Positions 8,517 to 32,664 of a stretch of DNA of 64,000 nt are shown piece after piece. The stretch lies in NCBI GenBank assembly GCA_016214845.1, contig JACRMS010000028.1, positions 16,070 through 80,069 on the forward strand, in the 5' to 3' direction. The DNA comes from Nitrospirota bacterium (lineage in GTDB: Bacteria > Nitrospirota > Thermodesulfovibrionia > UBA6902). The position numbers and the translations under genes are program-made. The notes beneath the pieces were generated by a model. The model searched no databases. It worked only from the letters and a program-made list of their open reading frames with translations, and was not told the DNA's origin. Position 1 is the first letter of the stretch; every line of letters starts with the position of its first letter.

Positions 8517-8521
8517 TTCCT

Positions 8522-10342: not shown

Positions 10343-10348
10343 TTTATT

Positions 10349-10380
10349 AGCTATAAGCTGATAGCTGTAAGCTATGAGCT
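10349..10380. repeat. Tandem AGCTNTN heptamers (AGCTATA AGCTGAT AGCTGTA AGCTATG) in the nuoB-nuoC gap
   Basis: Read directly from the sequence. A related AGCT-heptamer tract occurs at 60672-60712. Confidence 0.55.
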
Positions 10381-10382
10381 TT

Positions 10383-10901: not shown

Positions 10902-10912
10902 TTAATGGACCT

Positions 10913-10990
10913 TCGTAATTCGTGATGCGTAATGAGTAATGTGTAATGGATATTTTGTTCAAACACTTTACGCATTACGCTTAACGCTTC
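10913..10990. repeat. Imperfect palindrome built from CGTAATG-type heptamers in the nuoA-nuoB gap
   Basis: gtaattcgtgatgcgtaatgagtaatgtgtaatgga ... ttacgcattacgcttaacgcttcacgg. Confidence 0.55.
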
Positions 10991-10998
10991 ACGGTTTT

Positions 10999-14006: not shown

Positions 14007-14444
14007 ATGGCTTTAAATATAACTGGAAATATAGACGGTATTTTTCAATTGATCGGCGGGAATTTTTCAACCGCCGGTGAGGCCTCCACCCAGTTGAAAC
14101 ATAAACTCGCTGAGATCGGTGTCGATGAGGAAATTATCAGGCGCGCGACCATAGCGACCTTTGAGGCTGAGATGAACGTGATAATATACGCGGCCGCGGG
14201 CTGGCTTCATTACTACATCACCCCTGAAAGCATAAAAATAAGAATAGAAGACATGGGTCCCGGAATCGAGAACATTGAACTGGCAATGCAGGAAGGCTAT
14301 TCCACGGCGCCTGAATGGGTCAGGGAAATGGGCTGGGGCGCGGGCATGGGGCTGCCGAACATGAAAAAAAATTCCGATACATTCACAGTCGACTCGGTTG
14401 TCGGCGAAGGCACAACAGTGGAGATGGTCATAAATTTTCCTTAA
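14007..14444 (+). CDS. GHKL-type ATPase (anti-sigma-factor/Ser-kinase-like HATPase_c)
   Basis: 145 aa with GPGIENIE and GWGAGMGL G-box-like motifs, the size of an RsbW/SpoIIAB-class protein. It is tightly linked to 13655 (1-nt gap). Confidence 0.55.
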   Translation: MALNITGNIDGIFQLIGGNFSTAGEASTQLKHKLAEIGVDEEIIRRATIATFEAEMNVIIYAAAGWLHYYITPESIKIRIEDMGPGIENIELAMQEGYSTAPEWVREMGWGAGMGLPNMKKNSDTFTVDSVVGEGTTVEMVINFP

Positions 14445-14623: not shown

Positions 14624-14956
14624 ATGAAAGTCAAAGACCTTGTTGATCAATTGTCTCTGGATGTCAGATCATTTAATGACGGCCTTGGAAATGACATAAC
14701 CGGGGCATATGTCAGCGACCTGCTTTCCGATGTGATGGGAAACAGCAAAAAGGGGAATGTCTGGATAACCCTTCAGACCCATCTGAATATTGTTGCTGTT
14801 GCAAGCATGAAAGACCTCTCCGCTATTATAATCGTCGGAGGCAGGCAGGCGCAGGAAGAGACCATTAAAAAAGCTGAACAGGAAAAGGTCACAATACTGA
14901 CGACCGCGTTGCCTTCATTCGAGGCGTCAGGCAAAATTTATCAGATTCTTAAATAA
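14624..14956 (+). CDS. Small DRTGG-like or CBS-associated domain protein (hypothetical)
   Basis: 110 aa with a strong SD (aaaggag) 8 nt upstream and an IIIVGGRQAQEE motif. Assignment is tentative. Confidence 0.35.
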   Translation: MKVKDLVDQLSLDVRSFNDGLGNDITGAYVSDLLSDVMGNSKKGNVWITLQTHLNIVAVASMKDLSAIIIVGGRQAQEETIKKAEQEKVTILTTALPSFEASGKIYQILK

Positions 14957-15118: not shown

Positions 15119-16516
15119 TTACAGTGGCAAATTAATTAAAAACCGGCTGCCCTTTCCAAATGCGCTTTCCACTTTAATGTTCCCGCCGTGCGCTTCTACA
15201 ATTATCTTTGATATGCTCAAGCCAAGGCCGGTGCCGTCTTCGCTTCTTGAAGTGTCCGCCCTGTAAAACCGTTCAAATATCTTTTCCAGATCGTCCTGCC
15301 CGATGCCGGGGCCTGTGTCTAAGACTGAGATCACTGCGGTATTGTTATTTCTTGCCGTGGTAATTTCCACTGCTCCGTTTTCCTTATTGTAGTTCACGGC
15401 GTTTTCAATTATGTTCAGAAATACCTCGGTGAGCCTGTCTTTATTTCCCGTTATATTAATGTCATCTTTAAGGACCGTATTTATTGTTACGGATTTCTTT
15501 TCTGTCAGCGGCACTGCCATCTGCGCCGCTTCCCGGATGCATTCATTTAAAGATACGATCTTAAAACCATCCGGAGACAGCATCCCCGAATCAAGGCGCG
15601 CCAGGGAAAGCAGGTCTTTTATAAGCCTGCCCATGTTCTCAGAGACGGTCCTGATCGTACTCAACGCTTCAACGTATTCATCCTTTGTCCTGTCCTTTTG
15701 AAGCAGGACGTCGCAGTGGGTCTTTATCACAGTAACAGGTGTCTTAAGCTCATGGGACGCATCAGCGACAAGACGCCGCTCCGTCTCAAACGCCTTCTGG
15801 AGCCGGTCCAGCATCGCATTGAAAGAATCCGCGAGCACGGACAGCTCATTGGTCACTGCCTCAACGTCTATCCTCTTGCTGAGGGTTTTATGGGTGATGT
15901 TTTCGATATCGGAAGAAAATATTTTTAAAGGATCCAAAGAATGATTTGCCGCCCACAGCCCTGCAAAACTGATTATAAGGATACCCACGGAAGCCGCGAT
16001 CAGCAAAAAACGTTTAAACATATTGATCATCTCAAGGCTGTCAGCGATGCTTTCGGCGGCAAATACGCTGACGGGAATGCCGAGGAAGTCAAGGTCATGC
16101 TGTTTTATCCGCACCGGTTCGTTGTCTGGCCCGACGGATGTATAGACCCTTTCACTGAGCGCTTCATCGTAATATTCAAGTTTGGCTGATGTTAAATTAA
16201 TATCCTCATCGGCAAGTGAAGGTGATGCCGCAAGCAGCCTTCCGTTCATCAGCACCTGGTAGTAATGTCCCGAGCGCGGGATGGAATACGCCCCTGCGAT
16301 GATCTCGGAGAGTTCAAGCTCTATCCTGCCGTCTTCTTCGTGAAGTAAACCCGTAATGACCTGAAGCTGCGAATGGAGCGCCCGGTCAACAGAGGCAAAG
16401 ATGATCCGCTCTACCTCATGATAGAGGAACAGACTGACGGTAATAAGCAGAATGGACGTCAAACTGAGGAACCAGAAGAATAACCTGCCCTTGATGGATT
16501 TGGGGAATATCTTCAC
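15119..16516 (-). CDS. Sensor histidine kinase (2 TM, periplasmic sensor, HAMP, HisKA, HATPase_c)
   Basis: H-box SHELKTP and G-boxes DTGPGIGQDD and GTGLGLSISK. Its stop abuts the start of the upstream regulator 16517-17188 (no intergenic gap). Confidence 0.8.
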   Translation of the reverse strand: MKIFPKSIKGRLFFWFLSLTSILLITVSLFLYHEVERIIFASVDRALHSQLQVITGLLHEEDGRIELELSEIIAGAYSIPRSGHYYQVLMNGRLLAASPSLADEDINLTSAKLEYYDEALSERVYTSVGPDNEPVRIKQHDLDFLGIPVSVFAAESIADSLEMINMFKRFLLIAASVGILIISFAGLWAANHSLDPLKIFSSDIENITHKTLSKRIDVEAVTNELSVLADSFNAMLDRLQKAFETERRLVADASHELKTPVTVIKTHCDVLLQKDRTKDEYVEALSTIRTVSENMGRLIKDLLSLARLDSGMLSPDGFKIVSLNECIREAAQMAVPLTEKKSVTINTVLKDDINITGNKDRLTEVFLNIIENAVNYNKENGAVEITTARNNNTAVISVLDTGPGIGQDDLEKIFERFYRADTSRSEDGTGLGLSISKIIVEAHGGNIKVESAFGKGSRFLINLPL

Positions 16517-17188
16517 TTACTCCTTTTCCAGGACATAGCCTGCGCCTCTTACCGTTCGAATAAGCTGTTTGCCGCGTCCCTTGTCAATCTTGTTTCTCAG
16601 ATAGTTGATATAGACGTCTATCACGTTGCTGTCAAGATCAAACTCCGAATCATAAATATGCTCGGTAAGTTCGGTCCTGCTTATTACCTTGCCGGTGTTG
16701 AGCGCGAGATATTCAAGCAGTTTATATTCGGTTGAAGAAAGTTTGATCTCCCTGTTGCCTCTCTTTACGGTCATGGAGTTCATGTCTATTTCGAGGTCGC
16801 CTATACCGATGGTTGACGAGGGTTTGCTCCTGCTTCTTCTTATAACGGCCTTCAGTCTTGCAAGCAGCTCTGAAAAATCAAACGGCTTTGCAATGTAGTC
16901 GTCCGCCCCGGTATTCAACCCCTTTATCCTGTCATCAACTTCCCCTCTCGCCGTTATCATAAGGACCGGCACGGCTACTTGTTTTGCCCTGATCTTTTTC
17001 AGGACTGTAAGCCCGTCCATTTTGGGAAGCATGATATCAAGAAGGATAGCGTCGTAAGAATATGTCTCTGCCATGAAAAGCCCTTCCTCGCCGTCAAAAC
17101 ATAATTCCACAACAAAGCCGTTTTCTTCAAGGCCCTTCTTCAGTATCCCCGCTAATTTCTTCTCATCTTCTACTATAAGTAAACGCAT
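16517..17188 (-). CDS. OmpR-family response regulator (REC plus winged-helix trans_reg_C)
   Basis: MRLLIVEDE...LLDIMLP receiver and a C-terminal winged helix with a GAGYVL-type end motif. Confidence 0.85.
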   Translation of the reverse strand: MRLLIVEDEKKLAGILKKGLEENGFVVELCFDGEEGLFMAETYSYDAILLDIMLPKMDGLTVLKKIRAKQVAVPVLMITARGEVDDRIKGLNTGADDYIAKPFDFSELLARLKAVIRRSRSKPSSTIGIGDLEIDMNSMTVKRGNREIKLSSTEYKLLEYLALNTGKVISRTELTEHIYDSEFDLDSNVIDVYINYLRNKIDKGRGKQLIRTVRGAGYVLEKE

Positions 17189-17253
17189 AGGATTTGGAAC
17201 AAAGTCTGCACAGGCAGTCAGGCATTTTGCCTGGCTGCCTGTGCAGGATGTTT

Positions 17254-18447
17254 TTAGTCCTCAAGCTCTATCTTGATAGCCGCATTGGTGTCGCTGTTGA
17301 TCTTGACCTCCACGATCCATCCTGTCTGAAGGTCGGTAAAACAGGCTTCGCCCTGACCCATCATGCCCTGTGTGTATTTGCACACTGTGTTATCAGTGAC
17401 AGTGATCGGGGCCGGGGCCGTGTCTAATGTGAAATCGGCTGCGCCTTTAGTAGCAACCTTTCCTTTGAGTTCCCTGTTCTGGTGCGTTTCACCTTCATCG
17501 CTGCCGGAATCAGAACCTTCACAATCCGATGATGATGATTTAGCTTCTATCTTGGTTGCAGTGATTGTAGTTGTTGAAGACAGATCATCGGATGTCTTTA
17601 TTTCGAGACAAGTATTGAGGGTGAGGGCATTCAGGCAGTTCGCCGCGCCGGAATAGTTTATATCATTCACTTCGCAGATCGTGCTGCCCGTGAGGTTAAC
17701 CGTAAAATCCGTGCTCATGTGTTTGACGGTTATACTGTCAGCCCCGACATTAGTCAATGTCCCGTGCAGATCAAATTCCGAAGCCTCTATCTCGCTTTCA
17801 GATGTAATCGGCTGCATCTTTACTTCTGTTATACACCACGAAGATGTATCAGCGGGACTTGTACACGAATACTTTTTTACCTCAAACTCTTTAAGGACAA
17901 AATCAACCACGAGCTTATCTGAGCTCAATGGCTGGACCCTGCCGTTAAACCTTATGAAGCATTTATTGCTGCCATCTGCCGGGCACTGCACTGTATCAGG
18001 CTTGTTTGGCTTTTCATCCATGTCGGAAAAGAAAGCGTTATGAGCAACGCCGCTGTTGTCCGTTATGCTTGCCATGTTCCCGATGATGATCTCAAGCCTG
18101 TTAAATGTCCCCGCAGGGAAGGTGGCAGTTGTTATTAACTGGAGAACACCGTTAAGCTTTGCAAGGTCAACTGAAAGCCCCGTTGCATTTATGTAGAGGT
18201 TCTCCTTGGTTGTACAGTCATTGTCAGAACACAGATTGATCTCATAAACAGTTACCGTTATCGCGGGGAACTGGTCTGCCGGGTCATCCGTTAAAAACAC
18301 CCCGACGCTTTTCGCCCCTGCTGAACTGTTTGAGCCTCCGCCTGAACCTGAGCCGCCTCCGCTGCCTCCGCCGCTACAGTACGCAAGTATCAATGCAACA
18401 CTTATTGCCCCTAACAGCAAAAGCATTTTTTTTCCTTTGGTAATCAT
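17254..18447 (-). CDS. Lipoprotein with Gly/Ser linker (DUF4382-like, hypothetical)
   Basis: Signal peptide and lipobox (LILAYC) followed by (GGGS)n low-complexity linker. Beta-rich and Cys-containing. Domain recall is uncertain. Confidence 0.45.
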   Translation of the reverse strand: MITKGKKMLLLLGAISVALILAYCSGGGSGGGSGSGGGSNSSAGAKSVGVFLTDDPADQFPAITVTVYEINLCSDNDCTTKENLYINATGLSVDLAKLNGVLQLITTATFPAGTFNRLEIIIGNMASITDNSGVAHNAFFSDMDEKPNKPDTVQCPADGSNKCFIRFNGRVQPLSSDKLVVDFVLKEFEVKKYSCTSPADTSSWCITEVKMQPITSESEIEASEFDLHGTLTNVGADSITVKHMSTDFTVNLTGSTICEVNDINYSGAANCLNALTLNTCLEIKTSDDLSSTTTITATKIEAKSSSSDCEGSDSGSDEGETHQNRELKGKVATKGAADFTLDTAPAPITVTDNTVCKYTQGMMGQGEACFTDLQTGWIVEVKINSDTNAAIKIELED

Positions 18448-18528
18448 GTTATTAACCTCCTGAATTTTTTCTGCTCAGCATTGAGCATTTTTTATGTGAT
18501 GCATTTCCCGGCGAACAGAGATCACGCC

Positions 18529-18849
18529 TCACTTCCTGGCCTTTTTGATCTCGATCTTATCCGCGGAAAACCCTTTCCCTTCATGTCCGCCCTTCACCTC
18601 AATATATGCGCCTGTCTCAGCCTTTCCGTGGTCCTCCTCAATCAGGGTATCGGATGTGACCAGTATCTCTCTCCCGTTCACTATCCAGGTCCCTATTAAC
18701 CCCTTTGGGAGTTCCTCTATCGTACCGTAGAGCTTGCTTTCATATCTCTTATGATGTTTATGCTCTTCGTCATCATTGCTGCCGAACACAACCCCCGCAG
18801 TCAAAGCAACTATCAATCCGATAGACAGAACAGCTGATAAGACCTTCAA
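18529..18849 (-). CDS. Small secreted protein (DUF5666-like, hypothetical)
   Basis: 106 aa with a signal peptide and a His/Lys-rich N-region. It is adjacent to the lipoprotein and likely co-regulated by the two-component system. Confidence 0.35.
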   Translation of the reverse strand: MKVLSAVLSIGLIVALTAGVVFGSNDDEEHKHHKRYESKLYGTIEELPKGLIGTWIVNGREILVTSDTLIEEDHGKAETGAYIEVKGGHEGKGFSADKIEIKKARK

Positions 18850-19064: not shown

Positions 19065-19808
19065 ATGCTGAAACCGTTTAAGGCCGACCTCCACATCCAC
19101 ACATGCCTCTCCCCGTGCGCCGACCTTGAAATGAGCCCATCCGCTGTAGTAAGAACGGCGCTTGAAAGAGGCATAGACATCATCGCTATCACCGACCATA
19201 ATTCAGCGGAAAATATAATCGCCGCCCGGAAGGCCGCTGAAAATTCAGGACTGACAGTGCTTGCCGGGATGGAGGTAACATCCTCGGAGGAAGCGCACAT
19301 CCTTGCGCTCTTTGATGATGCTGAAGGAATTATGAAATTACAGGATATCGTGTACGACAATCTGCTGCCGGGAGAGAACGACGAAAAACTCTTCGGCGAG
19401 CAGATAGTTGTAAATGAAAAAGACGAGGTCATGGATTTTAATAAACGCCTGCTCATCGGAGCGACATCATTGCCCGCAAAGACAATCGTTGACACGATAC
19501 ACACTTTAGGCGGCATTGCCATCGCTTCGCACATTGACAGGGACGCCTTCAGCATCGTATCACAGTTAGGCTTCATTCCTGAGGATTTAAATTTTGACGC
19601 GCTTGAGATGTCGCCAAGGACCGACAGGGGGAAAGCTGTGCTTTTATATAATGACTACGCCTCATTTGCTTGGACAACTTCCTCGGATGCACACTGGCTG
19701 AAAGACATCGGAGAAAGAACAACCACCTTCCTCATAAACCGGCCGACACTGGAGGAGATGAGACTGGCCATGAAAAACATTGACGGAAGAAAGGTGGAGT
19801 GGGGGTAA
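19065..19808 (+). CDS. PHP-domain phosphoesterase (HfsC-like putative protein phosphatase)
   Basis: N-terminus LHIHTCLSPCAD and a later ITDHNS metal-binding motif typical of PHP domains. It overlaps the downstream GHKL ATPase by 10 nt. Confidence 0.7.
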   Translation: MLKPFKADLHIHTCLSPCADLEMSPSAVVRTALERGIDIIAITDHNSAENIIAARKAAENSGLTVLAGMEVTSSEEAHILALFDDAEGIMKLQDIVYDNLLPGENDEKLFGEQIVVNEKDEVMDFNKRLLIGATSLPAKTIVDTIHTLGGIAIASHIDRDAFSIVSQLGFIPEDLNFDALEMSPRTDRGKAVLLYNDYASFAWTTSSDAHWLKDIGERTTTFLINRPTLEEMRLAMKNIDGRKVEWG

Positions 19809-20359
19809 TCATGCAAGACCTTTCATTACACATCCTCGACATCGTTGAGAACTCGATAAACGCAAGCGCCACAGAGATCGGGATAAAGATCGTTGAAGAC
19901 ACCAAAGTAAATATTCTCTCCGTTGAAATAAGCGACAACGGCAGGGGCATGGATGAGGAGATGCTGAAAAAGGTCCATGACCCTTTCTTTACCACAAAGT
20001 GCAAGCGGACAGGCCTGGGCATCCCGCTGCTTGCGCAGTCGGCAAAGGAATGTAATGGTGATCTGACTATAAAAACGGGGTCGGGCATAGGCACAACGAT
20101 CAGCGCGCGTTTTCAGTTTGACCATATCGACAGGAAGCCTCTTGGAGATATCTGCAAGACAATGATCGTCCTGATCGCCTCGAATCCTGATGTTGATTTC
20201 ATTTATGAGCACAGGAGAAATGATGAATCTTACGTCCTGAATACCTCTGAAATCAAGAAGGAATTGGATGATGTTCCGATCAATTTACCCGATGTGATAA
20301 AAATTATTAAAGATGATATAAGCGCATGGTTAATTAGTACAAACATTATGATACAATAG
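19799..20359 (+). CDS. GHKL-type ATPase (HfsD-like Ser/Thr-kinase-like HATPase_c)
   Basis: HILDIVENSINA N-box, DNGRGMDEE G1 and GLGIPL/GSGIG G2 motifs. There is no HisKA or H-box. Confidence 0.6.
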   Translation: MGVIMQDLSLHILDIVENSINASATEIGIKIVEDTKVNILSVEISDNGRGMDEEMLKKVHDPFFTTKCKRTGLGIPLLAQSAKECNGDLTIKTGSGIGTTISARFQFDHIDRKPLGDICKTMIVLIASNPDVDFIYEHRRNDESYVLNTSEIKKELDDVPINLPDVIKIIKDDISAWLISTNIMIQ

Positions 20360-20444: not shown

Positions 20445-21209
20445 ATGGAAAAAGGCAGAATATTAGTACTCGATGACGATCCTGTTGTGACCCTGAGCTG
20501 CAAGAGAATACTCGGCGCAGAAGGCTACAGCATTTCAACTGTCGAAAAAGGAGAAGACGCCCTCAATAAACTCGCCAAGGAAGATTTCGACCTCCTCATC
20601 TCCGACGTAAGACTGCCTGATATCAGCGGCATGACCGTGCTCAAAGAGGCACGGGTCATCAAGCCGAAGACGGACGTTGTAATAATCACCGGCTATCCCA
20701 CGCTCGAAGACGCAAGGGAATCCACAAGGCTCGGCGCTCATGAGTATATTGAAAAGCCCTTCACGCCTGATTTCATGATCAATGTCGCAAAGAAGATCTT
20801 CGACACAAGGGGCTGGATCCTCAGGCAGGCGTTCATCGACGAGTTCAGGGATTCCGTCACCCCGCTGAGGGACCAGGAAAATCCGGTCATCTTTTATAAG
20901 GAAGGGACCTGGGCAAGGCCCGTCAAGGACGGCATGTGGGAGATCGGCTGCGATCTCAGATACTGGATGTTGGCGGGAAATCTCATGTACGTTGATTTAA
21001 TGAAGGACATAGATAAACTGGAAGCGGGGAGGCCCTTCGCAAGAATTTACTCAAGCGGCGGACAGGGGAGCGAACTGCTTTCTCCGATGAACGGGGAAAT
21101 AACTGAAGTCAATACAAAGGCGAACGATGTAATGGTCGCTCTATTGAAAGACCATTTGTCCGAAGGCTGGCTCCTGTGGCTTGCAAAAGTATTGCCGATA
21201 GGAAGTTAG
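20445..21209 (+). CDS. Receiver domain fused to a GcvH-like (lipoyl-type hybrid-barrel) domain that lacks the lipoyl-Lys
   Basis: REC residues DDD(10-12), D in LISDVRLPD and K in EKPFTPD. The C-terminus aligns to glycine-cleavage H protein (GTWARP..EIGCDLRYWMLAGNLMYVDL...SPMNGEITEVN...EGWLLW). The ESVKA Lys position reads YSSGGQG. Confidence 0.65.
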   Translation: MEKGRILVLDDDPVVTLSCKRILGAEGYSISTVEKGEDALNKLAKEDFDLLISDVRLPDISGMTVLKEARVIKPKTDVVIITGYPTLEDARESTRLGAHEYIEKPFTPDFMINVAKKIFDTRGWILRQAFIDEFRDSVTPLRDQENPVIFYKEGTWARPVKDGMWEIGCDLRYWMLAGNLMYVDLMKDIDKLEAGRPFARIYSSGGQGSELLSPMNGEITEVNTKANDVMVALLKDHLSEGWLLWLAKVLPIGS

Positions 21210-21328: not shown

Positions 21329-22201
21329 TTGATGGCAGACAATCTGAAAATCCTTGTCGTTGACGATGAGCCTATTGTTATAAAAAGCTGCGTGGCCGTG
21401 CTCAAGGCCGAAGGATATAACATCGAAGGTACGCTGAGCGGAAAAGACGCGATACTCAAGATGGAGCAAAACCCCTACGACCTCGTTTTCACTGACCTGA
21501 AGATGCCTGAAGTTGACGGCATAACCCTTATCAGATGGATCAAGCAAAAAAGACCTGACACGGGGATAGTGATAATCACAGGCTATCCTTCGCAGGACAC
21601 GATCAAAGACGCGCTTGAATTAGGCATTATTGATTACGTTCCGAAACCTTTTACCCCGGCAGTGCTTCTTGACGTGACCCAAAGAGCGGTTGAATGGGTA
21701 AAAGGAAAAGTCCCTGTAACAGAGGAAGTCAAAGAAGAATTCCCGCCTTCCATGATCCAGGAAATAGACAGGGTGATAAAACAGTATAAAAATAAACCCG
21801 GCAGTTCGATACCCGTGCTGCAGCGCTGCCAGCAGATAGTGGGTTATCTCCCTCCTGTTGTGCAGAAACGCATCGCAAGGGGTTTGAATATAACCCCTGC
21901 TGAGATCCACAGCATTGTTACCTTCTATTCCTTTTTCACAATGAAGCCCAGAGGCGACCACAACATCAGGATATGCCTCGGCACTGCGTGTTACGTTAAA
22001 AGGGTTGAAGAAGTCCTGAACAAGATAAAAGAAGATTTGAAACTGGAAGTCGGCGAAGTGACTTCGGACAAAAAATTCTCTCTGGAAACAGTCCGCTGCC
22101 TCGGCGCGTGCGGCCTTGCGCCTGTCATGGTCATTGATGATGAGACCTACGGCGCAATGAGCCCGAAGAAAGTGCCTGAGATCATCGAACAGTATAAATG
22201 A
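21329..22201 (+). CDS. Receiver domain fused to a NuoE/HoxE-like thioredoxin-fold [2Fe-2S] subunit
   Basis: N-terminal REC with DDE(12-14), D in FTDLKMPEVDG and K in VPKPFTPA. The C-terminus has the NuoE ligand pattern CLGTACYVKR...CLGACGLAPVMVIDDETYG. Confidence 0.75.
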   Translation: MMADNLKILVVDDEPIVIKSCVAVLKAEGYNIEGTLSGKDAILKMEQNPYDLVFTDLKMPEVDGITLIRWIKQKRPDTGIVIITGYPSQDTIKDALELGIIDYVPKPFTPAVLLDVTQRAVEWVKGKVPVTEEVKEEFPPSMIQEIDRVIKQYKNKPGSSIPVLQRCQQIVGYLPPVVQKRIARGLNITPAEIHSIVTFYSFFTMKPRGDHNIRICLGTACYVKRVEEVLNKIKEDLKLEVGEVTSDKKFSLETVRCLGACGLAPVMVIDDETYGAMSPKKVPEIIEQYK

Positions 22202-22275
22202 AAAAATATCCGCAGATGACACAGATGAACACAGATTGTTATTTGGATATTGGATAAATGTGAAACACGAATGTA

Positions 22276-22344
22276 TGTCATTCCCGCAAGTGAAGCGCAT
22301 CGGGAATCCTTCTTAAAGAAAGATTCCGGACAAGCCGGAATGAC
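22276..22344. repeat. Intergenic palindromic element, family A subtype (copy 5)
   Basis: tgtcattcccgcaagtgaagcgcatcgggaatcc...gattccggacaagccggaatgac. It has the same frame and stems as the copy at 6617-6692. Confidence 0.65.
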
Positions 22345-22415
22345 TGATACAGTTTGTAAACAATAAATATTTTATCTGTGAAATCTGCGTAATCTGTGGA
22401 CATAAAGGAGTCAAC

Positions 22416-22799
22416 ATGGCGAGATTAACCATTGAGGACCTAAAGAAGATAAAGGAAAAACAGCACGCCACCTTCACTCTCAGGGAAGGCGGATACAGGG
22501 CGAAGGTCACAGTCCACATGGGCACATGCGGGATCGCCGCCGGAGCGAGAGAGATCATGGCGGCCCTGCTTGATGAAATAGCCCAGTCAAAGGCTGAAGA
22601 CATAATTACAACAACCTCAGGCTGCGCTGGGCTTTGCGCGCGCGAGCCGATGATAACCGTTGAGGTGCTGAACAAACCGCCGGTGAAATACGGCGACCTG
22701 ACAGCAGAAAAGCTGAGAGAGATATTTAAAGAGCACGTTCTGGGCGGCAACCCTGTAGAAAAATACGCGCTGGTTGCAGGAAGTGAAACAACGTATTAA
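22416..22799 (+). CDS. Thioredoxin-like [2Fe-2S] ferredoxin subunit (HndB-like)
   Basis: 127 aa with CGIAAG...SGCAGLCAREP Cys pattern. The SD aaaggag lies inside the conserved ATCTGYG leader motif. Confidence 0.6.
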   Translation: MARLTIEDLKKIKEKQHATFTLREGGYRAKVTVHMGTCGIAAGAREIMAALLDEIAQSKAEDIITTTSGCAGLCAREPMITVEVLNKPPVKYGDLTAEKLREIFKEHVLGGNPVEKYALVAGSETTY

Positions 22800-22804
22800 A
22801 AGCA

Positions 22805-22869
22805 GGGCTTAGGGGTCAGGGATTGGGGATTGGTTTTTCACTAACCCCTAAGCCCTAACCCCCAACCCC
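22805..22869. repeat. G-rich heptamer hairpin, family B copy 2
   Basis: gggcttaggggtcagggattggggattgg-ttttt-cactaacccctaagccctaacccccaacccc. It could act as a terminator between 22416 and 22890. Confidence 0.6.
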
Positions 22870-22889
22870 TATTCTCAGAGGAGATTGTA

Positions 22890-24761
22890 ATGGAAAAGTA
22901 TCGTGCAAACTTACTAATGTGTGCGGGAACAGGCTGCGTAGCAAGCGGGACCCCCAAGGTAAAAGCTGCCTTGCAGGAAGAGCTGCAGAAGAGGGGGCTT
23001 GCCGATGAGATAAAGATCGTACTCACCGGGTGTAACGGGTTCTGCGCTGAGGGGCCTGTCATGCTCGTTTATCCTGATGAGATTTTTTACCAGAAGCTCA
23101 CCGTTGAAGATATTCCAAAGCTTGTTGAAGAACATTTTCTTAAAGGGCGTCCTTATGAAAAATTGATGTTCAGGGAGCCGGAGAAAAAGTCGGCGATCCC
23201 CCTGATGAAGGACATACCGTTCTTCAAACACCAGGTGCTGAGGGTCCTGAGAAACAAAGGTTTGATAGACCCTGAAAGCCTTGACGAATACATTGCAAGG
23301 GACGGCTACATGGCTGCCGCAAAGGCCCTCCATGAAATGACGTCAGCGGACATAATAAAGGTCATGAAAGACTCAGGGATCAGGGGGCGCGGCGGCGCGG
23401 GATTTCCAACGGGAATGAAATGGGATTTCGCATCAAAGTCGGTTGCGGACCAGAAATTCATGCTATGTAACGGAGACGAAGGAGACCCCGGCGCGTTCAT
23501 GGACAGGTCGGTCATGGAGGCAGACCCGCATTCGGTAATAGAGGGAATGATGATAGGCGCAAAGGCCATTGGCGCGAGCAAGGGCGTTATTTATGTAAGA
23601 GCTGAATATCCGCTGGCGGTAAAGCGCCTGCAATTGGCAATAGACAAATGCCGCGAGGCGGGACTGTTAGGAGAAAATATTCTCGGCAGCGGCTTTAACT
23701 TCGACCTTGAAATATATCTTGGCGCCGGTGCGTTCGTATGCGGTGAGGAGACCGCGCTCATGCGCTCAATTGAAGGCAAGCGCGGGATGCCGAGACCAAG
23801 ACCGCCCTTCCCTGCCCACAAAGGTTTATGGGACAAGCCTTCGGTCCTGAACAATGTCGAAACCCTCGCCCAGGTAGCGCCGATCATTCTGAACGGGGCT
23901 GATTGGTATAAAACCCTGGGCACTGAAAAAAGCACCGGCACAAAAGTATTCGCCCTCACCGGCGACATCAGGAACGTGGGCCTTGTCGAGGTCCCGATGG
24001 GGATCCCGCTGAGGACCATAATTTATGACATCGGCGGCGGGATGAAGAACAAGAAAAAGAAATTCAAGTCAGTGCAGATGGGAGGGCCTTCAGGAGGCTG
24101 CATCCCTGAAAGCCATATTGATATCCCGGTCACATATGAAGACGTTGTCAAGACCGGCGCCATCATGGGTTCAGGCGGCATGGTCGTCATGGACGAAGAC
24201 ACCTGCATGGTGAGCACTGCAAAATTTTTCCTTGAATTCACCGCTGACGAATCCTGCGGCAAATGTACGCCGTGCAGAGTCGGCACGAGGGTAATGCTTG
24301 ATATGCTCACCGACATCACGGAGGGCAGGGGAAAAGACGGTGACATTGAAACGCTTCAGGACCTGAGCAGGGACATTATTTTAACGTCTCTTTGCGGTCT
24401 CGGGCAGACAGCCCCAAACCCTGTCCTTTCGACGATCAGATATTTTAAAAATGAATATGAATCACACATCATTGACAACTGGTGCAAGACGGGCATATGC
24501 AGGAACCTCTGTTCCTTCCATATATTTGAAGACCTCTGCAAAGGATGCGGCGCATGTTTAAGAGGATGCCCACAGCAGGCGATCGTCGGCGAGAAGAAAC
24601 AGCCCCACCGGATCATCCAGGAGCTCTGCATACAATGCAGGAACTGTTACGACACATGTAAGTTCGGATCAATAAAGATAGGCCCGAAAGGGTGCAAAGA
24701 CATAAAAGCCATGCGCGAGCTTTTGGAGAAGGTTGAGAAAGTTGAGGAGGTCAAGGGATGA
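22890..24761 (+). CDS. NuoF-like NAD(H)-binding flavoprotein subunit with an extra N-terminal 2Fe-2S domain and C-terminal 2x[4Fe-4S] ferredoxin domain (HndC/HydB/FdhB-type)
   Basis: N-terminal CAGTGC...CNGFCAEGP, central GRGGAGFPTGMKW and ESCGKCTPCR, C-terminal CKGCGACLRGCP and CIQCRNCYDTC. 623 aa against the 420-aa true NuoF at 6707-7969. Confidence 0.85.
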   Translation: MEKYRANLLMCAGTGCVASGTPKVKAALQEELQKRGLADEIKIVLTGCNGFCAEGPVMLVYPDEIFYQKLTVEDIPKLVEEHFLKGRPYEKLMFREPEKKSAIPLMKDIPFFKHQVLRVLRNKGLIDPESLDEYIARDGYMAAAKALHEMTSADIIKVMKDSGIRGRGGAGFPTGMKWDFASKSVADQKFMLCNGDEGDPGAFMDRSVMEADPHSVIEGMMIGAKAIGASKGVIYVRAEYPLAVKRLQLAIDKCREAGLLGENILGSGFNFDLEIYLGAGAFVCGEETALMRSIEGKRGMPRPRPPFPAHKGLWDKPSVLNNVETLAQVAPIILNGADWYKTLGTEKSTGTKVFALTGDIRNVGLVEVPMGIPLRTIIYDIGGGMKNKKKKFKSVQMGGPSGGCIPESHIDIPVTYEDVVKTGAIMGSGGMVVMDEDTCMVSTAKFFLEFTADESCGKCTPCRVGTRVMLDMLTDITEGRGKDGDIETLQDLSRDIILTSLCGLGQTAPNPVLSTIRYFKNEYESHIIDNWCKTGICRNLCSFHIFEDLCKGCGACLRGCPQQAIVGEKKQPHRIIQELCIQCRNCYDTCKFGSIKIGPKGCKDIKAMRELLEKVEKVEEVKG

Positions 24762-27223
24762 TTAATCTGACCATTAACGGTAAAAAAATTACTGCTGAAG
24801 ACGGAGCGACAATACTGCAGGCCGCGCTGAAAAACAATATTCATATACCCAACCTCTGCTACGACAAAAGGCTCAGGCCCTACGGCGGATGCAGGCTGTG
24901 CATAGTTGAGGTCGAGGGACAGGCGAGGCTCTTTGCGGCCTGTTCGTCCCCTGCTGAAAACGGCATGGTCGTCACCACGGACACGCCCAAACTCAGGAAG
25001 CTGCGCCAGACGGTCATCGAGCTGCTTTTAGTCCACCATCCGCTCGATTGTCCTGAATGCGACAAGGCGGGTGAATGCCAGCTGCAGGACCTTGCTTATG
25101 AATGCGGCAAGCCCGAAGCGCGTTTTTTAAGACACAGGAAAGAGGCCACGGCAGACGTCAGGGGGCCGTTGATCGAGTTGACCTCAAGAAGATGCATACT
25201 CTGCGGAAAGTGCGTGAGGATATGCGCTGAACACCAGGGAAGAGGCGCGCTCGGTTTGATCGGAAGAGGTTTTCCCACAGTCGTTCAGCCCGCCTTCGGT
25301 GAGATACTTGAATGCGATTACTGCGGGCAGTGCCTCGACATCTGTCCCACGGGGGCGATACTGAGCAAGCCTTATAAATTCACTTCGCGCTCGTGGTTCC
25401 TTGAAGAGAAGGACACCATCTGCCCGTTCTGCGGCGTCGGCTGCACCCTCACCATCGGCATCAGGGAAGGAAAGATACTGAGGTCCAGGGGAGAGGAAGG
25501 CAAAGGCGTCAATGACGGAAACCTCTGCGGAAGGGGCAGGTTCGGCATTGATTATATCTACAACGAAAAGCGCCTGAAAAAACCGTTAATTAAAAAGGGC
25601 GACGAACTGGTCCCTGTCTCATGGGAAGAGGCCTTGTCCTATATTTCAAACAAACTGAACGCTGTGATAAAAAATCACGGAGCGGCTTCAATAGGAGCCA
25701 TCGGCTCTCCGAGATGCACCAACGAAGATAATTATGTCCTGCAAAAATTCATGAGGAAGGTAATCGGAACAAACAATATTGATTCCTCCGCCGCATTCGG
25801 CTACAACAAAGTGCAGAAGGCATGGGAAATGTCCTTCGGCGGGAAAAACCATCCCATAGACCTGAGATATCCTCTGGGCAAAGAGGCCATCCTTATAATC
25901 GAATCAAACATCAGCGTCACACACCCGGTGTACGGGCTTAACATCCTCCAGGCAAAAAGAGAAGGCGCTAAACTCATTGTCGCTGACTCAAGAGAGACAA
26001 AGCTGACAAAACACAGCACGCAGTGGCTCAGTATCAAGGACGGCACAGGCGTCGCCTTTTTAAACGGATTAATGAAAGTCATCATCGACAGGGAACTTTA
26101 TGATAAAGACGCCGCGTCAAAGATATCAGGTTTCTCGTCTCTAAAATCAGCCTTGGCAAATTACACCCTTAAAAACGTCTCAGATATTACAGGCATCCCG
26201 GAAGATGAAATCATCTCTGCCGCAGAAACATTTGCAAAGGCAAAGAGCAGGATGGTCTCACTTACTGTCAGCGCGTCTGAAAACACAAAAGGCATGGACA
26301 CAGTGCTTGCCGCCGCGAACCTCGTCAATCTTTTAGGTGACAGCCCTGAGGCCCTGCAAATTCCCGCGAACTACTCAAACAGCTACGGTCTCTACCAGAT
26401 GGGCGTAAGGCCCTTCCAGCAGCCGCTGAACATGGGCGTCTTCGAGATGCTTTACAGTGAAGAGAGCTCGCTCAAGTCGCTGTATATCATGGGAGAAGAC
26501 CCGGCAGTCACATTCCCCGACAGCGCAAAGATAATAAAGAGATTGAAGTCCCTTGATTTCCTCGTGGTGCAGGATATCTTCCTCACTGAAACCGCAAAGC
26601 TTGCAAACGTGGTGCTGCCCGCGTCAAGCTGGGCCGAAAAAGACGGGACCTTCATGAATGCAGAAGGCGTCCTGCAAAAAGTTTACAAACTGACAGACCC
26701 CGCAGGCGAATCATATCCGGACTGGATGATACTGAAAAATCTCGCCCTGACCATGGGCAAAGACGCGGGAGTCAAAAACCTGCAGGGTATCCAGGAGGAA
26801 ATAAAATCTCTTATCTCAGCCCACGACCCGGCAGGGGAGAAAAAGACGTTCAACCCTGTAGAGTATAAACCTGGAGAGGACCCGAATCCTGATTATCCGC
26901 TGAAGCTTGTGATAAGGGATGTCCTTCAGCACTCAGGCAGCATGTCCACAAGCTCCAAATCACTCGACCTCGTTATCTCCGAGGCATTGCTTGAAATAAA
27001 TGAGGAAGACGCAAAGAGGCACGGCATACTCGATAACAGTCATGTGAAGCTGGTCTCAAAACGCGGGTCCGTGTACCTGAAGGCCCAATATTCAGATGAA
27101 ATTCCAGAAGGCACGGTCTTTGTGCCCACGCACTTCCCTTACGCAAAGATAAACGCTCTCACTCAGGCCTCCTCAAACGGCGAGCCGCCGATCATTGCGG
27201 TGAATGTCGAGGCTACGAAGTAG
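24758..27223 (+). CDS. NuoG-like 2Fe-2S/4Fe-4S subunit with a non-catalytic molybdopterin-oxidoreductase-like domain (paralog of nuoG)
   Basis: N-terminus CYDKRLRPYGGCRLCIVEV, HPLDCPECDKAGECQLQD and CxxCxxC. The motif SPRCTNEDNYVLQKFMRKVIGTNNIDSSAAFGY has no Cys/SeCys-His pair at the formate dehydrogenase active-site position. Confidence 0.8.
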   Translation: MINLTINGKKITAEDGATILQAALKNNIHIPNLCYDKRLRPYGGCRLCIVEVEGQARLFAACSSPAENGMVVTTDTPKLRKLRQTVIELLLVHHPLDCPECDKAGECQLQDLAYECGKPEARFLRHRKEATADVRGPLIELTSRRCILCGKCVRICAEHQGRGALGLIGRGFPTVVQPAFGEILECDYCGQCLDICPTGAILSKPYKFTSRSWFLEEKDTICPFCGVGCTLTIGIREGKILRSRGEEGKGVNDGNLCGRGRFGIDYIYNEKRLKKPLIKKGDELVPVSWEEALSYISNKLNAVIKNHGAASIGAIGSPRCTNEDNYVLQKFMRKVIGTNNIDSSAAFGYNKVQKAWEMSFGGKNHPIDLRYPLGKEAILIIESNISVTHPVYGLNILQAKREGAKLIVADSRETKLTKHSTQWLSIKDGTGVAFLNGLMKVIIDRELYDKDAASKISGFSSLKSALANYTLKNVSDITGIPEDEIISAAETFAKAKSRMVSLTVSASENTKGMDTVLAAANLVNLLGDSPEALQIPANYSNSYGLYQMGVRPFQQPLNMGVFEMLYSEESSLKSLYIMGEDPAVTFPDSAKIIKRLKSLDFLVVQDIFLTETAKLANVVLPASSWAEKDGTFMNAEGVLQKVYKLTDPAGESYPDWMILKNLALTMGKDAGVKNLQGIQEEIKSLISAHDPAGEKKTFNPVEYKPGEDPNPDYPLKLVIRDVLQHSGSMSTSSKSLDLVISEALLEINEEDAKRHGILDNSHVKLVSKRGSVYLKAQYSDEIPEGTVFVPTHFPYAKINALTQASSNGEPPIIAVNVEATK

Positions 27224-29875: not shown

Positions 29876-30301
29876 TTGAAAATCAACATGAAAAAATACG
29901 AACCTATTGATATCTCAGGAGACGCAGGCCTCAGGATATGGGGCGATGGGCTGCCTGAGCTTTTTGCGAATGCCGCGGAAGGGATGTTTAATCTCATTAC
30001 AGATGTCTTAAATGTAACAGGACCGGAAGAAAGGGAAGTTGCCGTCCGCGCTGAAAGTATTGAAGATTTGCTCATCAAATGGCTCAACGAGCTTGTCTTC
30101 CTCTTTGATACATTCGGCCTTGTTGGAAAGTCATTTGATATAAGGATTGAAAACACCTCGCTGAAGGCAAAGATCTCAGGCGGGATCTTTAATCCTCAGG
30201 CCAATGAAAGCAGGCTGCTTATCAAGGCCGCCACATATCACAACCTGTCGGTAAGAAAGATCAATTCAAAGTGGGAGGCTGTGGTAATATTTGATATATA
30301 G
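29876..30301 (+). CDS. Archease (RtcB activator)
   Basis: 141 aa with blocks SLKAKISGGIFNPQ and KAATYHNLSVRK and a C-terminal VVIFDI matching the archease fold. It lies directly upstream of rtcB. Confidence 0.7.
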   Translation: MKINMKKYEPIDISGDAGLRIWGDGLPELFANAAEGMFNLITDVLNVTGPEEREVAVRAESIEDLLIKWLNELVFLFDTFGLVGKSFDIRIENTSLKAKISGGIFNPQANESRLLIKAATYHNLSVRKINSKWEAVVIFDI

Positions 30302-30328
30302 TCAAAGAGAAATGAAGGAAGTGAGATC

Positions 30329-31774
30329 ATGACCATTGAGGGATTACATAGAATTGACGCCACGAGGCTTGAGGTGCCGAAGGGCTACAAGGCCGGAATG
30401 AGGACGAACGGAATTATTTATATTGATGAGGTCCTTGAGAAAGAACTTGAGAAAGAGGCCATTGAGCAGGTCGCAAACGTTTCCACACTCCCGGGGATTG
30501 TCGGTTCATCGCTCGCAATGCCTGATATTCATACAGGGTACGGTTTTACCATAGGAGGCGTTGCCGCGTTCGATCTGAAAGAGGGGATCATTTCTCCGGG
30601 TGGAGTTGGTTATGACATCAATTGCGGGGTCAGGCTTTTGAGGACCAATCTTGCCAGAGAAGAGGTCGCTCCGAAGATCAAAGAGCTTATCGAGGGCTTT
30701 TACAGGGACATCCCGACAGGCGTAGGGTCGAAAGGGAAACTGCGTTTGAATTCCGAAGAACACAGAAAGGTCCTTCTGCAAGGAGCGCGCTGGGTAGTGG
30801 AGCAGGGTTTCGGAGAAAAGGAAGACCTCATTCACGCGGAGTCTGGGGGATGCATCGACGGGGCGGACCCCGGCCTGATCAGCGACAAGGCTTATGAGCG
30901 CGGCAGGTCGCAGCTCGGAACTCTCGGCTCAGGCAACCACTTTACGGAGATCCAGTACGTTGACGAGATTTACGATGAGAAGATCGCCAATGCCCTCGGT
31001 TTGTTTAAGACCCAGATCACAGTTATGATCCATACAGGCTCGCGCGGTTTCGGCCACCAGGTGTGCACGGACTTTCTTGAAGTAATGCAGAGGTCGGCGG
31101 CAAAATACAAGATTGAGCTGCCGGACAGGGAGCTTGCCTGCGCGCCCTTTGACAGCCCTGAGGCAAGGGACTACTTAGCGTCAATGAGGGCTGCCGCGAA
31201 TTTCGCATGGGCCAACAGGCAGTTCATTATGTACTGGGTGAAGGAGTCCTTCATGAATGTCTTTGGCACAGGGCCGAAAATGATCGGCATGAGCCTGATA
31301 TATGATGTTGCGCACAACATTGCAAAGGTGGAGGAGCACATTGTCAACGGGCAAAAGAGAAAACTTGTGATACACCGCAAAGGCGCAACAAGGGCCTTCC
31401 CTCCGGGGCATCCTGAACTTCCCGATGCATACAAACATATCGGCCAGCCTGTTATAATACCGGGCGATATGGGCAGGGCGTCTTATGTCCTCATAGGGAC
31501 TGAAAGAGGAATGGCGGAAGCCTTCGGCTCCACATGCCACGGCGCAGGCAGGCTGATGTCAAGGCATCAGGCGATAAGAAGGGCGAAAGGGCGCTCTATC
31601 CGCAGAGAGATGGAAGACATGGGCATAGTCGTAAGGTCTGCCGGGAGGGAGACGCTTGCGGAGGAAATGCCGGAGGCTTACAAGAACGTTTCAAATGTTG
31701 TGGACGTAGTGCATAACGCTGGACTTTCAAAAAAGGTCGCGAGGCTCAGGCCGCTCGGTGTGATAAAGGGATAA
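30329..31774 (+). CDS. rtcB: RNA-splicing ligase RtcB
   Basis: 481 aa with RtcB metal and active-site blocks (GYDINCGVRL, GSGNHF, YDVAHNIAKVEEH, STCHGAGR). Confidence 0.85.
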   Translation: MTIEGLHRIDATRLEVPKGYKAGMRTNGIIYIDEVLEKELEKEAIEQVANVSTLPGIVGSSLAMPDIHTGYGFTIGGVAAFDLKEGIISPGGVGYDINCGVRLLRTNLAREEVAPKIKELIEGFYRDIPTGVGSKGKLRLNSEEHRKVLLQGARWVVEQGFGEKEDLIHAESGGCIDGADPGLISDKAYERGRSQLGTLGSGNHFTEIQYVDEIYDEKIANALGLFKTQITVMIHTGSRGFGHQVCTDFLEVMQRSAAKYKIELPDRELACAPFDSPEARDYLASMRAAANFAWANRQFIMYWVKESFMNVFGTGPKMIGMSLIYDVAHNIAKVEEHIVNGQKRKLVIHRKGATRAFPPGHPELPDAYKHIGQPVIIPGDMGRASYVLIGTERGMAEAFGSTCHGAGRLMSRHQAIRRAKGRSIRREMEDMGIVVRSAGRETLAEEMPEAYKNVSNVVDVVHNAGLSKKVARLRPLGVIKG

Positions 31775-31779
31775 AGTTA

Positions 31780-32664
31780 ATGAAAAAATTGAAACTCAGG
31801 ATCGGCAGGATCCCGTACGCAAACCTTTTCCCGATATTCTACTATCTCGAAAAGCAATGCAATCATTCAGCGTACAGATTTGTCAAAGGCGTTCCTTCAA
31901 AGGTGAATAAAATGCTGCGCGAGGGCAAACTCGACATCAGCCCTTCATCTTCCATTGAATACCTGCGGAACAAGAACAAATACCTTATCGTGCCCTACTC
32001 TTCCATAAGCTCCTCCGGGCCCATCAAAAGCATCCTCCTGTTTTCGAAATACCCGTTAAATGAACTAGGCGGTAAGGCCATTGCGCTGTCATCAGCGTCT
32101 GAAACATCCACCGCGCTCTTGAAAATAATCCTGAAAGAATTCCTCTCGCTAAAATGCAAATTCAAACCCACGGACCACCGCAGCGTCAAAAATATCCTGT
32201 CGACTTTTTCCGCTGTCCTTCACATAGGCGACACGGCGATGCAGGAAGCGAAGAAGACAGAAAACAGAAGACAGAAGACAGAAGACAGAAAAAAGAAAAC
32301 AAATAATAGTCTGGCATCTGAGGTCTGTCTTCTGGGTTCTGAGCCGCTTTTCATCTACGACCTTGGAGAGCTGTGGTTTAAATACACGGGACTTCCATTT
32401 GTGTTTGCCCTGTGGGTTGTAACGAAAGATGCTGTTGAGGAGAAAAAAGAGCTTATCAAAAAACTCTCCTCGGAATTAAGGAACGCAAAAAAGTACGCAG
32501 GTAAAAAATTCCCGCTGATAGCAAAAGACGCCCCTCAAAATAAATGGCTGACGGAAAAAGAACTTATTGACTACTGGAAGACCATCTCCTATGACTTCAC
32601 TGAAAAACACCTTGAGGGCCTGCGGCTGTTCGAGAAGTACGCATTGAAATTATCCGGCAAGTAA
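31780..32664 (+). CDS. MqnA/MqnD-family protein (futalosine-pathway menaquinone biosynthesis, chorismate dehydratase-like) with a low-complexity insertion
   Basis: N-terminus LRIGRIPYANLFPIFYYL...GKLDISPSSSIEYL is typical of the VitK2_biosynth family. It contains the insertion KKTENRRQKTEDRKKKTNNS, encoded by a heptamer repeat. Confidence 0.55.
   Translation: MKKLKLRIGRIPYANLFPIFYYLEKQCNHSAYRFVKGVPSKVNKMLREGKLDISPSSSIEYLRNKNKYLIVPYSSISSSGPIKSILLFSKYPLNELGGKAIALSSASETSTALLKIILKEFLSLKCKFKPTDHRSVKNILSTFSAVLHIGDTAMQEAKKTENRRQKTEDRKKKTNNSLASEVCLLGSEPLFIYDLGELWFKYTGLPFVFALWVVTKDAVEEKKELIKKLSSELRNAKKYAGKKFPLIAKDAPQNKWLTEKELIDYWKTISYDFTEKHLEGLRLFEKYALKLSGK
32258..32292. repeat. (CAGAARA)5 tandem heptamer microsatellite inside the MqnA-like ORF, in frame together with flanking copies
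   Basis: cagaaaa cagaaga cagaaga cagaaga cagaaaa, with c at 32258, 32265, 32272, 32279 and 32286. Confidence 0.8.

Follow-up and report, generated by a model that had tools for sequence, protein, structure and literature searches.

The 64,000-nucleotide stretch studied here (below, the window; all coordinates are given on it) belongs to contig JACRMS010000028.1 of a Nitrospirota bacterium of the class Thermodesulfovibrionia. Its left part is occupied by the nuo operon of complex I, which lies on the minus strand, extends past the window start inside nuoL and, as the original prediction made from the sequence alone had said, already encodes NuoE, NuoF and NuoG; the prediction had called this operon complete, which goes beyond what the window shows. 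On the plus strand, at 21329-27223, lies a second set of four genes for NuoE-, HndB-, NuoF- and NuoG-like proteins (Table 1). The prediction had taken this set for a paralogous one of the flavin-based electron-bifurcating (Bfu) type, in which the NuoE-like subunit (BfuC, here REC-NuoE) carries an N-terminal receiver domain (REC), and the alignment and cluster ligands of the NuoF-like subunit confirm that assignment. The four genes were delimited correctly, but they are only the last four of a conserved unit that starts at 11625; the genes upstream, for a sensor kinase, a stand-alone REC, a REC-GcvH-like protein and DRTGG, HATPase and PHP proteins, had been overlooked.

Domains were called with Pfam, and family membership was judged by the curated equivalog cut-offs of NCBIfam. 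A genome scan yielded at least 490 candidate stretches that encode a relative of the REC-NuoE query; the best 80 of these loci were analysed (numbers such as L074 denote related genome loci), and their gene content was assigned by tblastn of the window proteins. All of the relatives compared are metagenome-assembled genomes (MAGs). The best 80 loci represent species-level genomes, and in them the whole fusion architecture (residues 1-288 of REC-NuoE) is covered at 69-99% identity. According to their titles, nearly all are Nitrospirota/Thermodesulfovibrionia MAGs, including Candidatus Sulfobium, and a few carry another taxon or none.

Table 1. Genes of the cluster and of the adjoining nuo operon in the window
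Feature	Position	Strand	Evidence or remark
nuo operon, divergent; nuoA (10999-11370) through nuoK (1326-1628), nuoL cut	1-11370	-	Probable partner: quinone (Q) and proton-pumping (P) modules
Canonical nuoG	4026-6590	-	nuo operon
Canonical nuoF, 420 residues, no extra domains	6707-7969	-	nuo operon
Canonical nuoE	7975-8439	-	nuo operon
Sensor histidine kinase: transmembrane segment, ~165-residue extracytoplasmic domain, transmembrane segment, HAMP, HisKA, HATPase_c	11625-13226	+	Pfam
Stand-alone REC, NtrC-type	13223-13603	+	Pfam E=1.9e-33
DRTGG-domain protein 1	13655-14005	+	Pfam; kept in 40 loci
HATPase_c_2 protein, SpoIIAB/RsbW-like Ser-kinase fold	14007-14444	+	Pfam; NCBIfam spIIAB-like below cut-off
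DRTGG-domain protein 2	14624-14956	+	Pfam
Insertion: HAMP-type sensor kinase, OmpR-type regulator, exported DUF4382/DUF5666 protein, small DUF5666 protein	15119-18849	-
PHP-domain phosphoesterase	19065-19808	+	Pfam; metal-binding HxH, DHN and SSDAH conserved
Stand-alone HATPase_c, without HisKA/DHp	19799-20359	+	Pfam; overlaps PHP stop codon
REC-GcvH-like protein	20445-21209	+	Pfam; residue conservation; GcvH alignment
REC-NuoE (BfuC), 289 residues	21332-22201	+	Pfam Response_reg and 2Fe-2S_thioredx/NuoE; conservation; AlphaFold2 model
HndB-like thioredoxin-fold protein, 127 residues	22416-22799	+	Weak Pfam match; 3 conserved Cys
BfuB (NuoF-like), 623 residues	22890-24761	+	FMN/NADH site and clusters B1-B5; full-length match to 7t2r_B
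BfuA (NuoG-like), 821 residues	24758-27223	+	Pfam; FdsA alignment; comparison with NuoG of the same genome; NCBIfam

The four enzyme genes

The NuoF-like protein, BfuB, consists of an N-terminal 2Fe-2S domain, a NuoF core and a C-terminal 2x[4Fe-4S] domain (Pfam), so that the extra domains claimed for it in the original prediction are present. It aligns end to end with chain 7t2r_B (823 bits, E=1.6e-246) and matches 7q4v_B with 798 bits; Nfn/Stn enzymes are among the other PDB matches. By the cluster-ligand definitions of Schut et al. 2022 (PMC9304861; Acetomicrobium mobile numbering), the ligands of cluster B2 are C, T, H, C and C, aligned to C438, C/T476, H525, C531 and C536 of 7t2r_B, and the cysteines of B1, B3, B4 and B5 are all kept in the same alignment. 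Because it aligns over its full length with bifurcating B subunits and has all of the B2 ligands, the NuoF-like subunit is, as far as its residues tell, a genuine B subunit of Bfu type. Its scores lie below the cut-off for one NuoF model (TIGR01959, 499.1 vs 558.65) and just above that for another (NF010120, 390.6 vs 389).

REC-NuoE starts at ATG 21332 in the public record (P0001), and at TTG 21329 in the list of open reading frames. It contains a Response_reg domain at residues 8-115 (E=7e-29, 100.6 bits) and a NuoE/HoxE-type [2Fe-2S] domain (2Fe-2S_thioredx/NuoE) at residues 146-290 (E=2e-50); for the NuoE model NF005722 it scores 139.7, below the cut-off of 141. The claim that this 24-kDa-like subunit bears a canonical phospho-acceptor receiver held on alignment: D11, D12, D55, T83 and K105 are all in place, D55, T83 and K105 being identical in 81/81 aligned sequences, and D11 and D12 in 79/81, with gaps at these positions in the other two. 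The cysteines of the C1 [2Fe-2S] cluster (C215, C220, C256 and C260) are likewise kept in 81/81. Mean identity is 80% in the REC and 75% in the NuoE part, and only 44% in the variable linker of about 15 residues. The AlphaFold2 model (predicted local distance difference test score, pLDDT, 76.8) has a (beta-alpha)5 receiver of five strands and five helices, plus the NuoE fold, with residues 127-135 as a disordered linker and the two domains in no fixed mutual orientation (predicted template modelling score, pTM, 0.46). Because of these residues, their conservation, the modelled fold and the flexible linker, the REC is a functional-looking, flexibly tethered domain and no relic, to judge from alignment and model.

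The HndB-like protein scores 24.4 bits for the thioredoxin-like 2Fe-2S family, just below the Pfam cut-off of 24.8. Its conserved cysteines are C38, C70 and C74 only, together with His35; it may thus carry a cluster with one non-Cys ligand, or bind no cluster. Its gene is not present in about 10 related loci (for example, L032, L037 and L077).

The large subunit, BfuA, has the Pfam domains Fer2_4, NADH-G_4Fe-4S_3, Fer4_Nqo3, Molybdop_Fe4S4, Molybdopterin and Molydop_binding, and its best PDB matches are the formate dehydrogenase FdsA chains 9wxb_B and 6tg9_A (407-417 bits). This similarity, a score of 491 bits with the formate dehydrogenase alpha model TIGR01591, and Joint Genome Institute names such as 'NADP-reducing hydrogenase subunit HndA' would fit an ordinary operon for an Hnd/Hyd [FeFe]-hydrogenase or an NAD-dependent formate dehydrogenase. 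We regard such an operon as extremely improbable: the TIGR01591 score falls short of the cut-off of 666, and all of the catalytic residues of formate dehydrogenase (Lys, Cys/Sec, His and Arg) are replaced in a manner that is fixed in 60 orthologues. In the alignment with Rhodobacter capsulatus FdsA (6tg9_A), the catalytic CARVCHS has become SAAFGYN, with Gly348 at the Cys position in 60/60 orthologues and Tyr or Phe (Tyr349 here) at the His position; the Lys that comes next to the fourth cysteine in the 4Fe-4S motif is replaced by Arg259, again in 60/60, and the conserved Arg of the FdsA motif RGQNNVQG is missing. Moreover, no protein of the cluster matches the H-cluster domain Fe_hyd_lg_C in Pfam, and no hydrogenase or formate dehydrogenase catalytic subunit adjoins the cluster in the window or in the 80 loci. 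The candidate of a formate dehydrogenase or hydrogenase operon is thus refuted at the sequence level by catalytic residues and domains, in agreement with the original prediction, which had excluded both enzymes for the largest subunit. Compared with NuoG of the same genome, BfuA is 34% identical over the full length and has the same kind of degenerate site, and for the NuoG model TIGR01973 (cut-off 470.05) it scores below the cut-off (450.2), whereas the operon NuoG scores above it (477.6). The molybdopterin-type domain of BfuA is, by its residues, catalytically dead, and the persistence of this dead but complete NuoG-type C-terminal domain suggests a structural or docking role.

Public pipelines label these REC-NuoE proteins 'NADP-reducing hydrogenase subunit HndA' (P0008, P0009 and others), and the label 'NADP-reducing hydrogenase HndA-D' probably leads to [FeFe]-hydrogenases being wrongly assigned to Thermodesulfovibrionia MAGs.

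Taken by its subunits, the four-gene set is a Bfu-type module of the kind that interacts with NADH and ferredoxin, with bifurcation as its predicted activity.

Regulatory genes of the cluster

In the relatives, too, the sensor histidine kinase is the first gene of the cluster. Its extracytoplasmic domain, to which no Pfam family matches, contains the haem-c motifs CxxCH (121-125) and Cx4CH (164-170; the xH extends to 172), which are kept in 47-49 of 49 orthologues, and is probably a di-haem c-type redox sensor. The stand-alone REC that follows has D8, D9, D52 and K102 in 66/66 and T80 in 64/66 sequences, and its best PDB relatives are the NtrC1/NtrC4 receivers; kinship with the response-regulator subunit of mycobacterial complex I was considered and dropped, as the two share no specific similarity and this protein is an ordinary receiver of the NtrC type.

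A third receiver lies directly before REC-NuoE, in the REC-GcvH-like protein. Its receiver residues are identical in 74/74 sequences, its identity is 81-89% across the 120 best matches (annotated merely as 'CheY-like'), and it has Gly206 at the position of the lipoyl-carrying Lys65 of E. coli GcvH (ESVKA hairpin) in an alignment of the two proteins. The AlphaFold2 model of this protein is of low confidence (pLDDT 42.9), with a shallow alignment. The REC-GcvH-like protein also accompanies REC-NuoE in the distant cluster L086.

The three RECs of the cluster (free, GcvH-like-fused and NuoE-fused) are all canonical and paralogous, and Pfam recognizes no DNA-binding output domain on any of these three proteins. 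Since the cluster encodes its own HisKA kinase together with three RECs without such an output, the control at the protein level, rather than through transcription, that the original prediction proposed is the natural reading. A scan for promoters and terminators gave matches no higher than the shuffled expectation.

The presence of REC, REC-GcvH-like and REC-NuoE proteins in series within one cluster, and the flexible linker, which is typical of response regulators, would also fit REC-NuoE as a signalling protein, in which the [2Fe-2S] domain serves for redox sensing or as the output acting on other targets, and not as an enzyme subunit. This appears very unlikely, however, in view of the invariant gene order E-(HndB)-F-G across the loci and the retention of the four cluster cysteines in every sequence aligned. 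In addition, BfuB of L074 has no other E-type subunit available, and BfuC is required by all of the characterised Bfu cores (PMC9304861).

The remaining regulatory genes encode the DRTGG, HATPase_c_2, PHP and HATPase_c proteins, and the N, G1 and G2 boxes of the stand-alone HATPase_c are conserved. In the window, a minus-strand insertion splits the DRTGG genes from the PHP gene. It is lineage-specific at that position, and the same gene set precedes REC-NuoE without it in the complete MAG chromosome CP070632.1 and in many loci. Other insertions (1-8 kb) lie between the PHP and HATPase_c genes of L005, L006, L007 and L014, and this region of regulatory genes seems to be an insertion hotspot.

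Linkage to the nuo operon and the proposed input module

Nuo genes lie beside the cluster in 43 of the 80 loci, or in 43 of the 56 that are informative (Thermodesulfovibrionia); the other 24 are too short to tell. The cluster diverges from nuoA, as in the window, in 40 of the 43, is co-directional and directly upstream of nuoA in one (L077), and stands inside the nuo operon in two (L074 and L079). In L074, all of the genes are contiguous on one strand, in the order nuoABCD, kinase, REC, REC-NuoE, HndB, BfuB, BfuA, DRTGG, HATPase_c_2, DRTGG, PHP, HATPase_c and nuoHIJK. The cluster there fills the slot of nuoEFG between nuoD and nuoH, with no canonical nuoEFG between them, while in L079 it is positioned between nuoE and nuoF. 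In the remaining 13 loci, no nuo genes are seen in an upstream flank of at least 8 kb, and insertions are frequent. One of these 13, L057 (a Candidatus Sulfobium MAG), has the cluster downstream of an Ehr-type complex-I-like module (199-8083), which comprises NuoH-, NuoK- and NuoL/M-like proteins, a fused NuoC-NuoD-like protein without the NiFe cysteine motifs, and a NuoB-like protein. Elsewhere, in L063 (11485-20364), two tandem BfuB-BfuA pairs follow a single REC-NuoE/HndB; they are 72-77% and 61-67% identical to the window proteins.

Because the linkage survives three rearrangements and the nuoEFG slot is occupied in L074, the likely partner of the module is the Q/P part of complex I. The original prediction had called the module 'soluble' and had found no catalytic partner nearby; this part does not stand, since the adjoining nuo operon is such a likely partner. 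A bifurcating complex I, named Nuo-Bfu, was predicted from gene order by Schut et al. 2022 (PMC9304861) for BfuB clades 38/39, including Nitrospirae, with BfuABC described as replacing NuoEFG. When BfuABC in place of nuoEFG is looked for, L074 fits and L079 fits partly, whereas the cluster of the window diverges from a neighbouring nuo operon that has its own canonical nuoEFG. The linkage data are the strongest genomic support so far for the Nuo-Bfu hypothesis.

The REC-NuoE fusion itself extends beyond this lineage. In a representative library at 50% identity, at least 12 more clusters show both domains, REC and NuoE, in full, at 31-51% identity, with the receiver residues intact in most and degenerate in a few. 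The contigs of L083, L085 and L086 reveal the context, those of L084, L087, L088 and L089 being too short to inform, and the fusions with known context sit in other Bfu-type clusters. L083 encodes BfuB and a ferredoxin-rich BfuA-like protein without an H-cluster or molybdopterin domain, with CCG-domain (HdrB-like) and HydS-like genes close by; we had considered it a true HydABC operon, which was dropped as the BfuA-like protein has no H-cluster domain in Pfam. The order in L086 is REC-GcvH-like, REC-NuoE, DRTGG, HATPase_c_2, HydS-like, an unannotated 116-residue protein, PHP, HATPase_c and HndB-like, and its contig ends within the next gene, for which no Pfam annotation is on record. In L085, the HATPase_c_2, PHP and HATPase_c set stands upstream of REC-NuoE. 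The search of genomes for such fusions thus found them not confined to the present system: the REC-BfuC fusion is a recurrent feature of Bfu enzymes, which has here been recruited to a NuoG-type variant.

The HydS-like genes of L083 (19342-20664) and L086 (4688-5950) encode putative sensory [FeFe]-hydrogenases with Fer4, Fe_hyd_lg_C and PF04060 domains. They sit between HATPase_c_2 and the next gene; the lineage of the window has the same flanking genes and no HydS.

Based on these data, we give about an even chance to the reading that the Bfu set forms an alternative input (N) module of complex I, of the Nuo-Bfu kind, under direct two-component control. The module would bind to the NuoB/CD/I Q-module of the adjoining operon, linking NADH and reduced ferredoxin to menaquinone, or would work in reverse. 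Through its putative haems, the membrane kinase would respond to a redox signal from outside the cytoplasm and phosphorylate the three paralogous receivers, that is, the free REC, the REC of the REC-GcvH-like protein and the REC of REC-NuoE. Receivers of the NtrC type, once phosphorylated, usually change shape at the alpha4-beta5-alpha5 face and dimerise differently. In its phosphorylated form, the tethered REC could alter the activity of the module, its oligomeric state or its docking to complex I. One route may lead through the NuoE/BfuC subunit, as movement of the BfuC C-terminal domain has been proposed to gate the electron flow of bifurcation (PMC9304861). The DRTGG, HATPase_c_2, PHP and HATPase_c genes would form an additional and older layer of regulation, which other Bfu clusters have as well.

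Several points weigh against this reading. The window has its cluster outside the nuo operon, in divergent orientation, and the canonical NuoEFG are all encoded, so that a second N-module is not strictly needed. The 13 loci mentioned above have no nuo genes in view, and a linkage seen in a single bacterial class could be due in part to common descent. As REC-BfuC also occurs in clusters without nuo on the available DNA, it is a feature of Bfu enzymes and not of complex I. Finally, Nuo-Bfu is itself a prediction, for which a search of the literature found no biochemical demonstration and no later study.

Some of these points would equally suit a free-standing soluble BfuABC(+HndB) complex, such as an oxidoreductase linked to NADH and ferredoxin, with its third partner encoded elsewhere or with a soluble carrier in that role. 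This is possible but less probable than the input module, and we hold as similarly tentative its corollary that the adjacency to nuo stems from a duplication of nuoEFG or from shared regulation, the REC still being a post-translational regulator. The intact canonical nuoEFG, the opposite strand of the cluster and the 13 loci with no nuo genes within 10 kb agree with a soluble complex, as do the REC-BfuC fusions of L083 and L086 and the many Bfu clades to which no third substrate is assigned (PMC9304861). What argues for complex I instead is the exact placement of the L074 set in the nuoEFG slot, with no other E, F or G gene in that operon, together with the persistence of linkage through the rearrangements, the full, catalytically dead NuoG-type C-terminal domain of BfuA and the lack of a conserved candidate partner downstream of the cluster in any locus.

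A further step beyond the input module is more doubtful still: that the haem-sensor two-component system switches one complex I between the NADH-only NuoEFG and the ferredoxin-using, bifurcating REC-NuoE/BfuB/BfuA. Here, the receiver in the NuoE subunit would be phosphorylated along with the free REC and the REC-GcvH-like protein, and docking or gating, not transcription, would be controlled. The linkage data also raise the possibility of one membrane arm serving two input modules.

The rest of the window contains three groups of genes to be mentioned. At 29876-32664, the paired genes for an archease and an RtcB RNA ligase precede an MqnA-like gene of the futalosine pathway of menaquinone synthesis, which is consistent with menaquinone as the respiratory quinone. 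On the minus strand, 44359-53070 encodes a protein of 2903 residues with glucoamylase-like and GH94 domains, which resembles cyclic beta-1,2-glucan synthase. Its gene lies in a GC-rich stretch (0.54-0.57) with low-GC flanks (0.38-0.43 at 38-44 kb and 0.38 at 54-56 kb), and this GC mosaic may represent acquired DNA. The low-GC segment 39022-44233 encodes a 1035-residue calcineurin-like phosphoesterase with TPR repeats and a DUF4062/HATPase_c_4 protein.

Comparison with known systems

The closest published counterpart, judged by subunits and gene arrangement, is Nuo-Bfu (PMC9304861). In both, BfuABC-type E, F and G genes stand in or beside a nuo cluster, BfuB bears additional Fe-S clusters, the NuoG-like BfuA lacks a catalytic site, and menaquinone is the presumed third substrate. 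The present system differs from Nuo-Bfu as published in that the canonical and Bfu sets coexist in most genomes; receiver domains, kinases and PHP/DRTGG genes have no occurrence in PMC9304861.

Among the solved Bfu enzymes, namely the NiFe-HydABCSL of A. mobile (7t2r) and the HydABC of A. woodii, T. kivui and T. maritima (7q4v, 8a6t and 7p5h), the B subunits align end to end with BfuB (823-677 bits). All of the BfuB cluster ligands are shared, and BfuC and the N-terminal domains of BfuA are homologous. In the A. mobile NiFe enzyme, NuoB/NuoD-like subunits provide the docking site for the ABC module. Unlike these enzymes, the present set has no hydrogenase domain or subunits, the C-terminal domain of BfuA being a dead molybdopterin fold, and BfuC carries an N-terminal REC, which is not mentioned in the published descriptions with which we compared it.

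The order NuoE-like, HndB-like, NuoF-like and large subunit is that of HndABCD of Solidesulfovibrio fructosivorans, and the association of stand-alone HATPase, PHP and DRTGG genes with Bfu clusters (and, in L083 and L086, of HydS-like genes) recalls the regulatory sets of multimeric [FeFe]-hydrogenases. However, the present cluster differs from HndABCD and the [FeFe]-hydrogenase operons in that its large subunit is without an H-cluster, no HydS is encoded, and a REC fusion and a HisKA kinase occur in addition. FdsABG of R. capsulatus (6tg9) supplies the best PDB match of the large subunit, with the same domain order, but all of the catalytic residues are replaced here, and the flavoprotein is of the bifurcating type with clusters B2-B5, which are not in FdsB.

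A response regulator is already known in the complex I of mycobacteria, where the single-domain protein MSMEG_2064/Rv3143 is a structural subunit (PMC10068793 and PMC9274095), described by Liang et al. (PMC10068793) as unique to mycobacteria. It is bound to NuoB/A/C/I with its Asp occluded, and phosphorylation has been proposed to prevent the association (PMC10068793), which offers a structural precedent for a control of docking. A REC gene stands at the start of the nuo region in both systems, and the mycobacterial protein acts on complex I at the protein level. The mycobacterial REC is free and has no known kinase. In the present cluster, one REC is joined covalently to the NuoE-type subunit of the Bfu module, there are genes for two more RECs and for a kinase that looks cognate, and the receivers are NtrC-type and show no specific resemblance to MSMEG_2064.

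As the original prediction supposed, the literature searched contains no paper on REC-NuoE/HydC fusions, nor any on NuoEFG of Thermodesulfovibrionia, and the papers found on Thermodesulfovibrionia and Hnd do not discuss the genes of the cluster. It also reports neither a receiver fusion of the E subunit nor the kinase and RECs that go with it, and no case of a canonical and a Bfu-type N-module side by side at a single membrane arm.

Complex I and Bfu enzymes are central to anaerobic energy conservation, and to our knowledge almost nothing is known about their post-translational control. If true, the control of the module by a receiver that is part of a core redox subunit and has its own kinase, without a transcriptional output, would be a clear case of two-component signalling acting directly on an electron-transfer machine. 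It would also be an independent second, and covalent, case of a response regulator in complex I, in an unrelated phylum and in a different subunit. The Bfu core was already known and Nuo-Bfu had been published as a prediction, whereas the receiver fusion, the set of kinase and RECs, and the coexistence of the two N-modules appear new by the literature searched.

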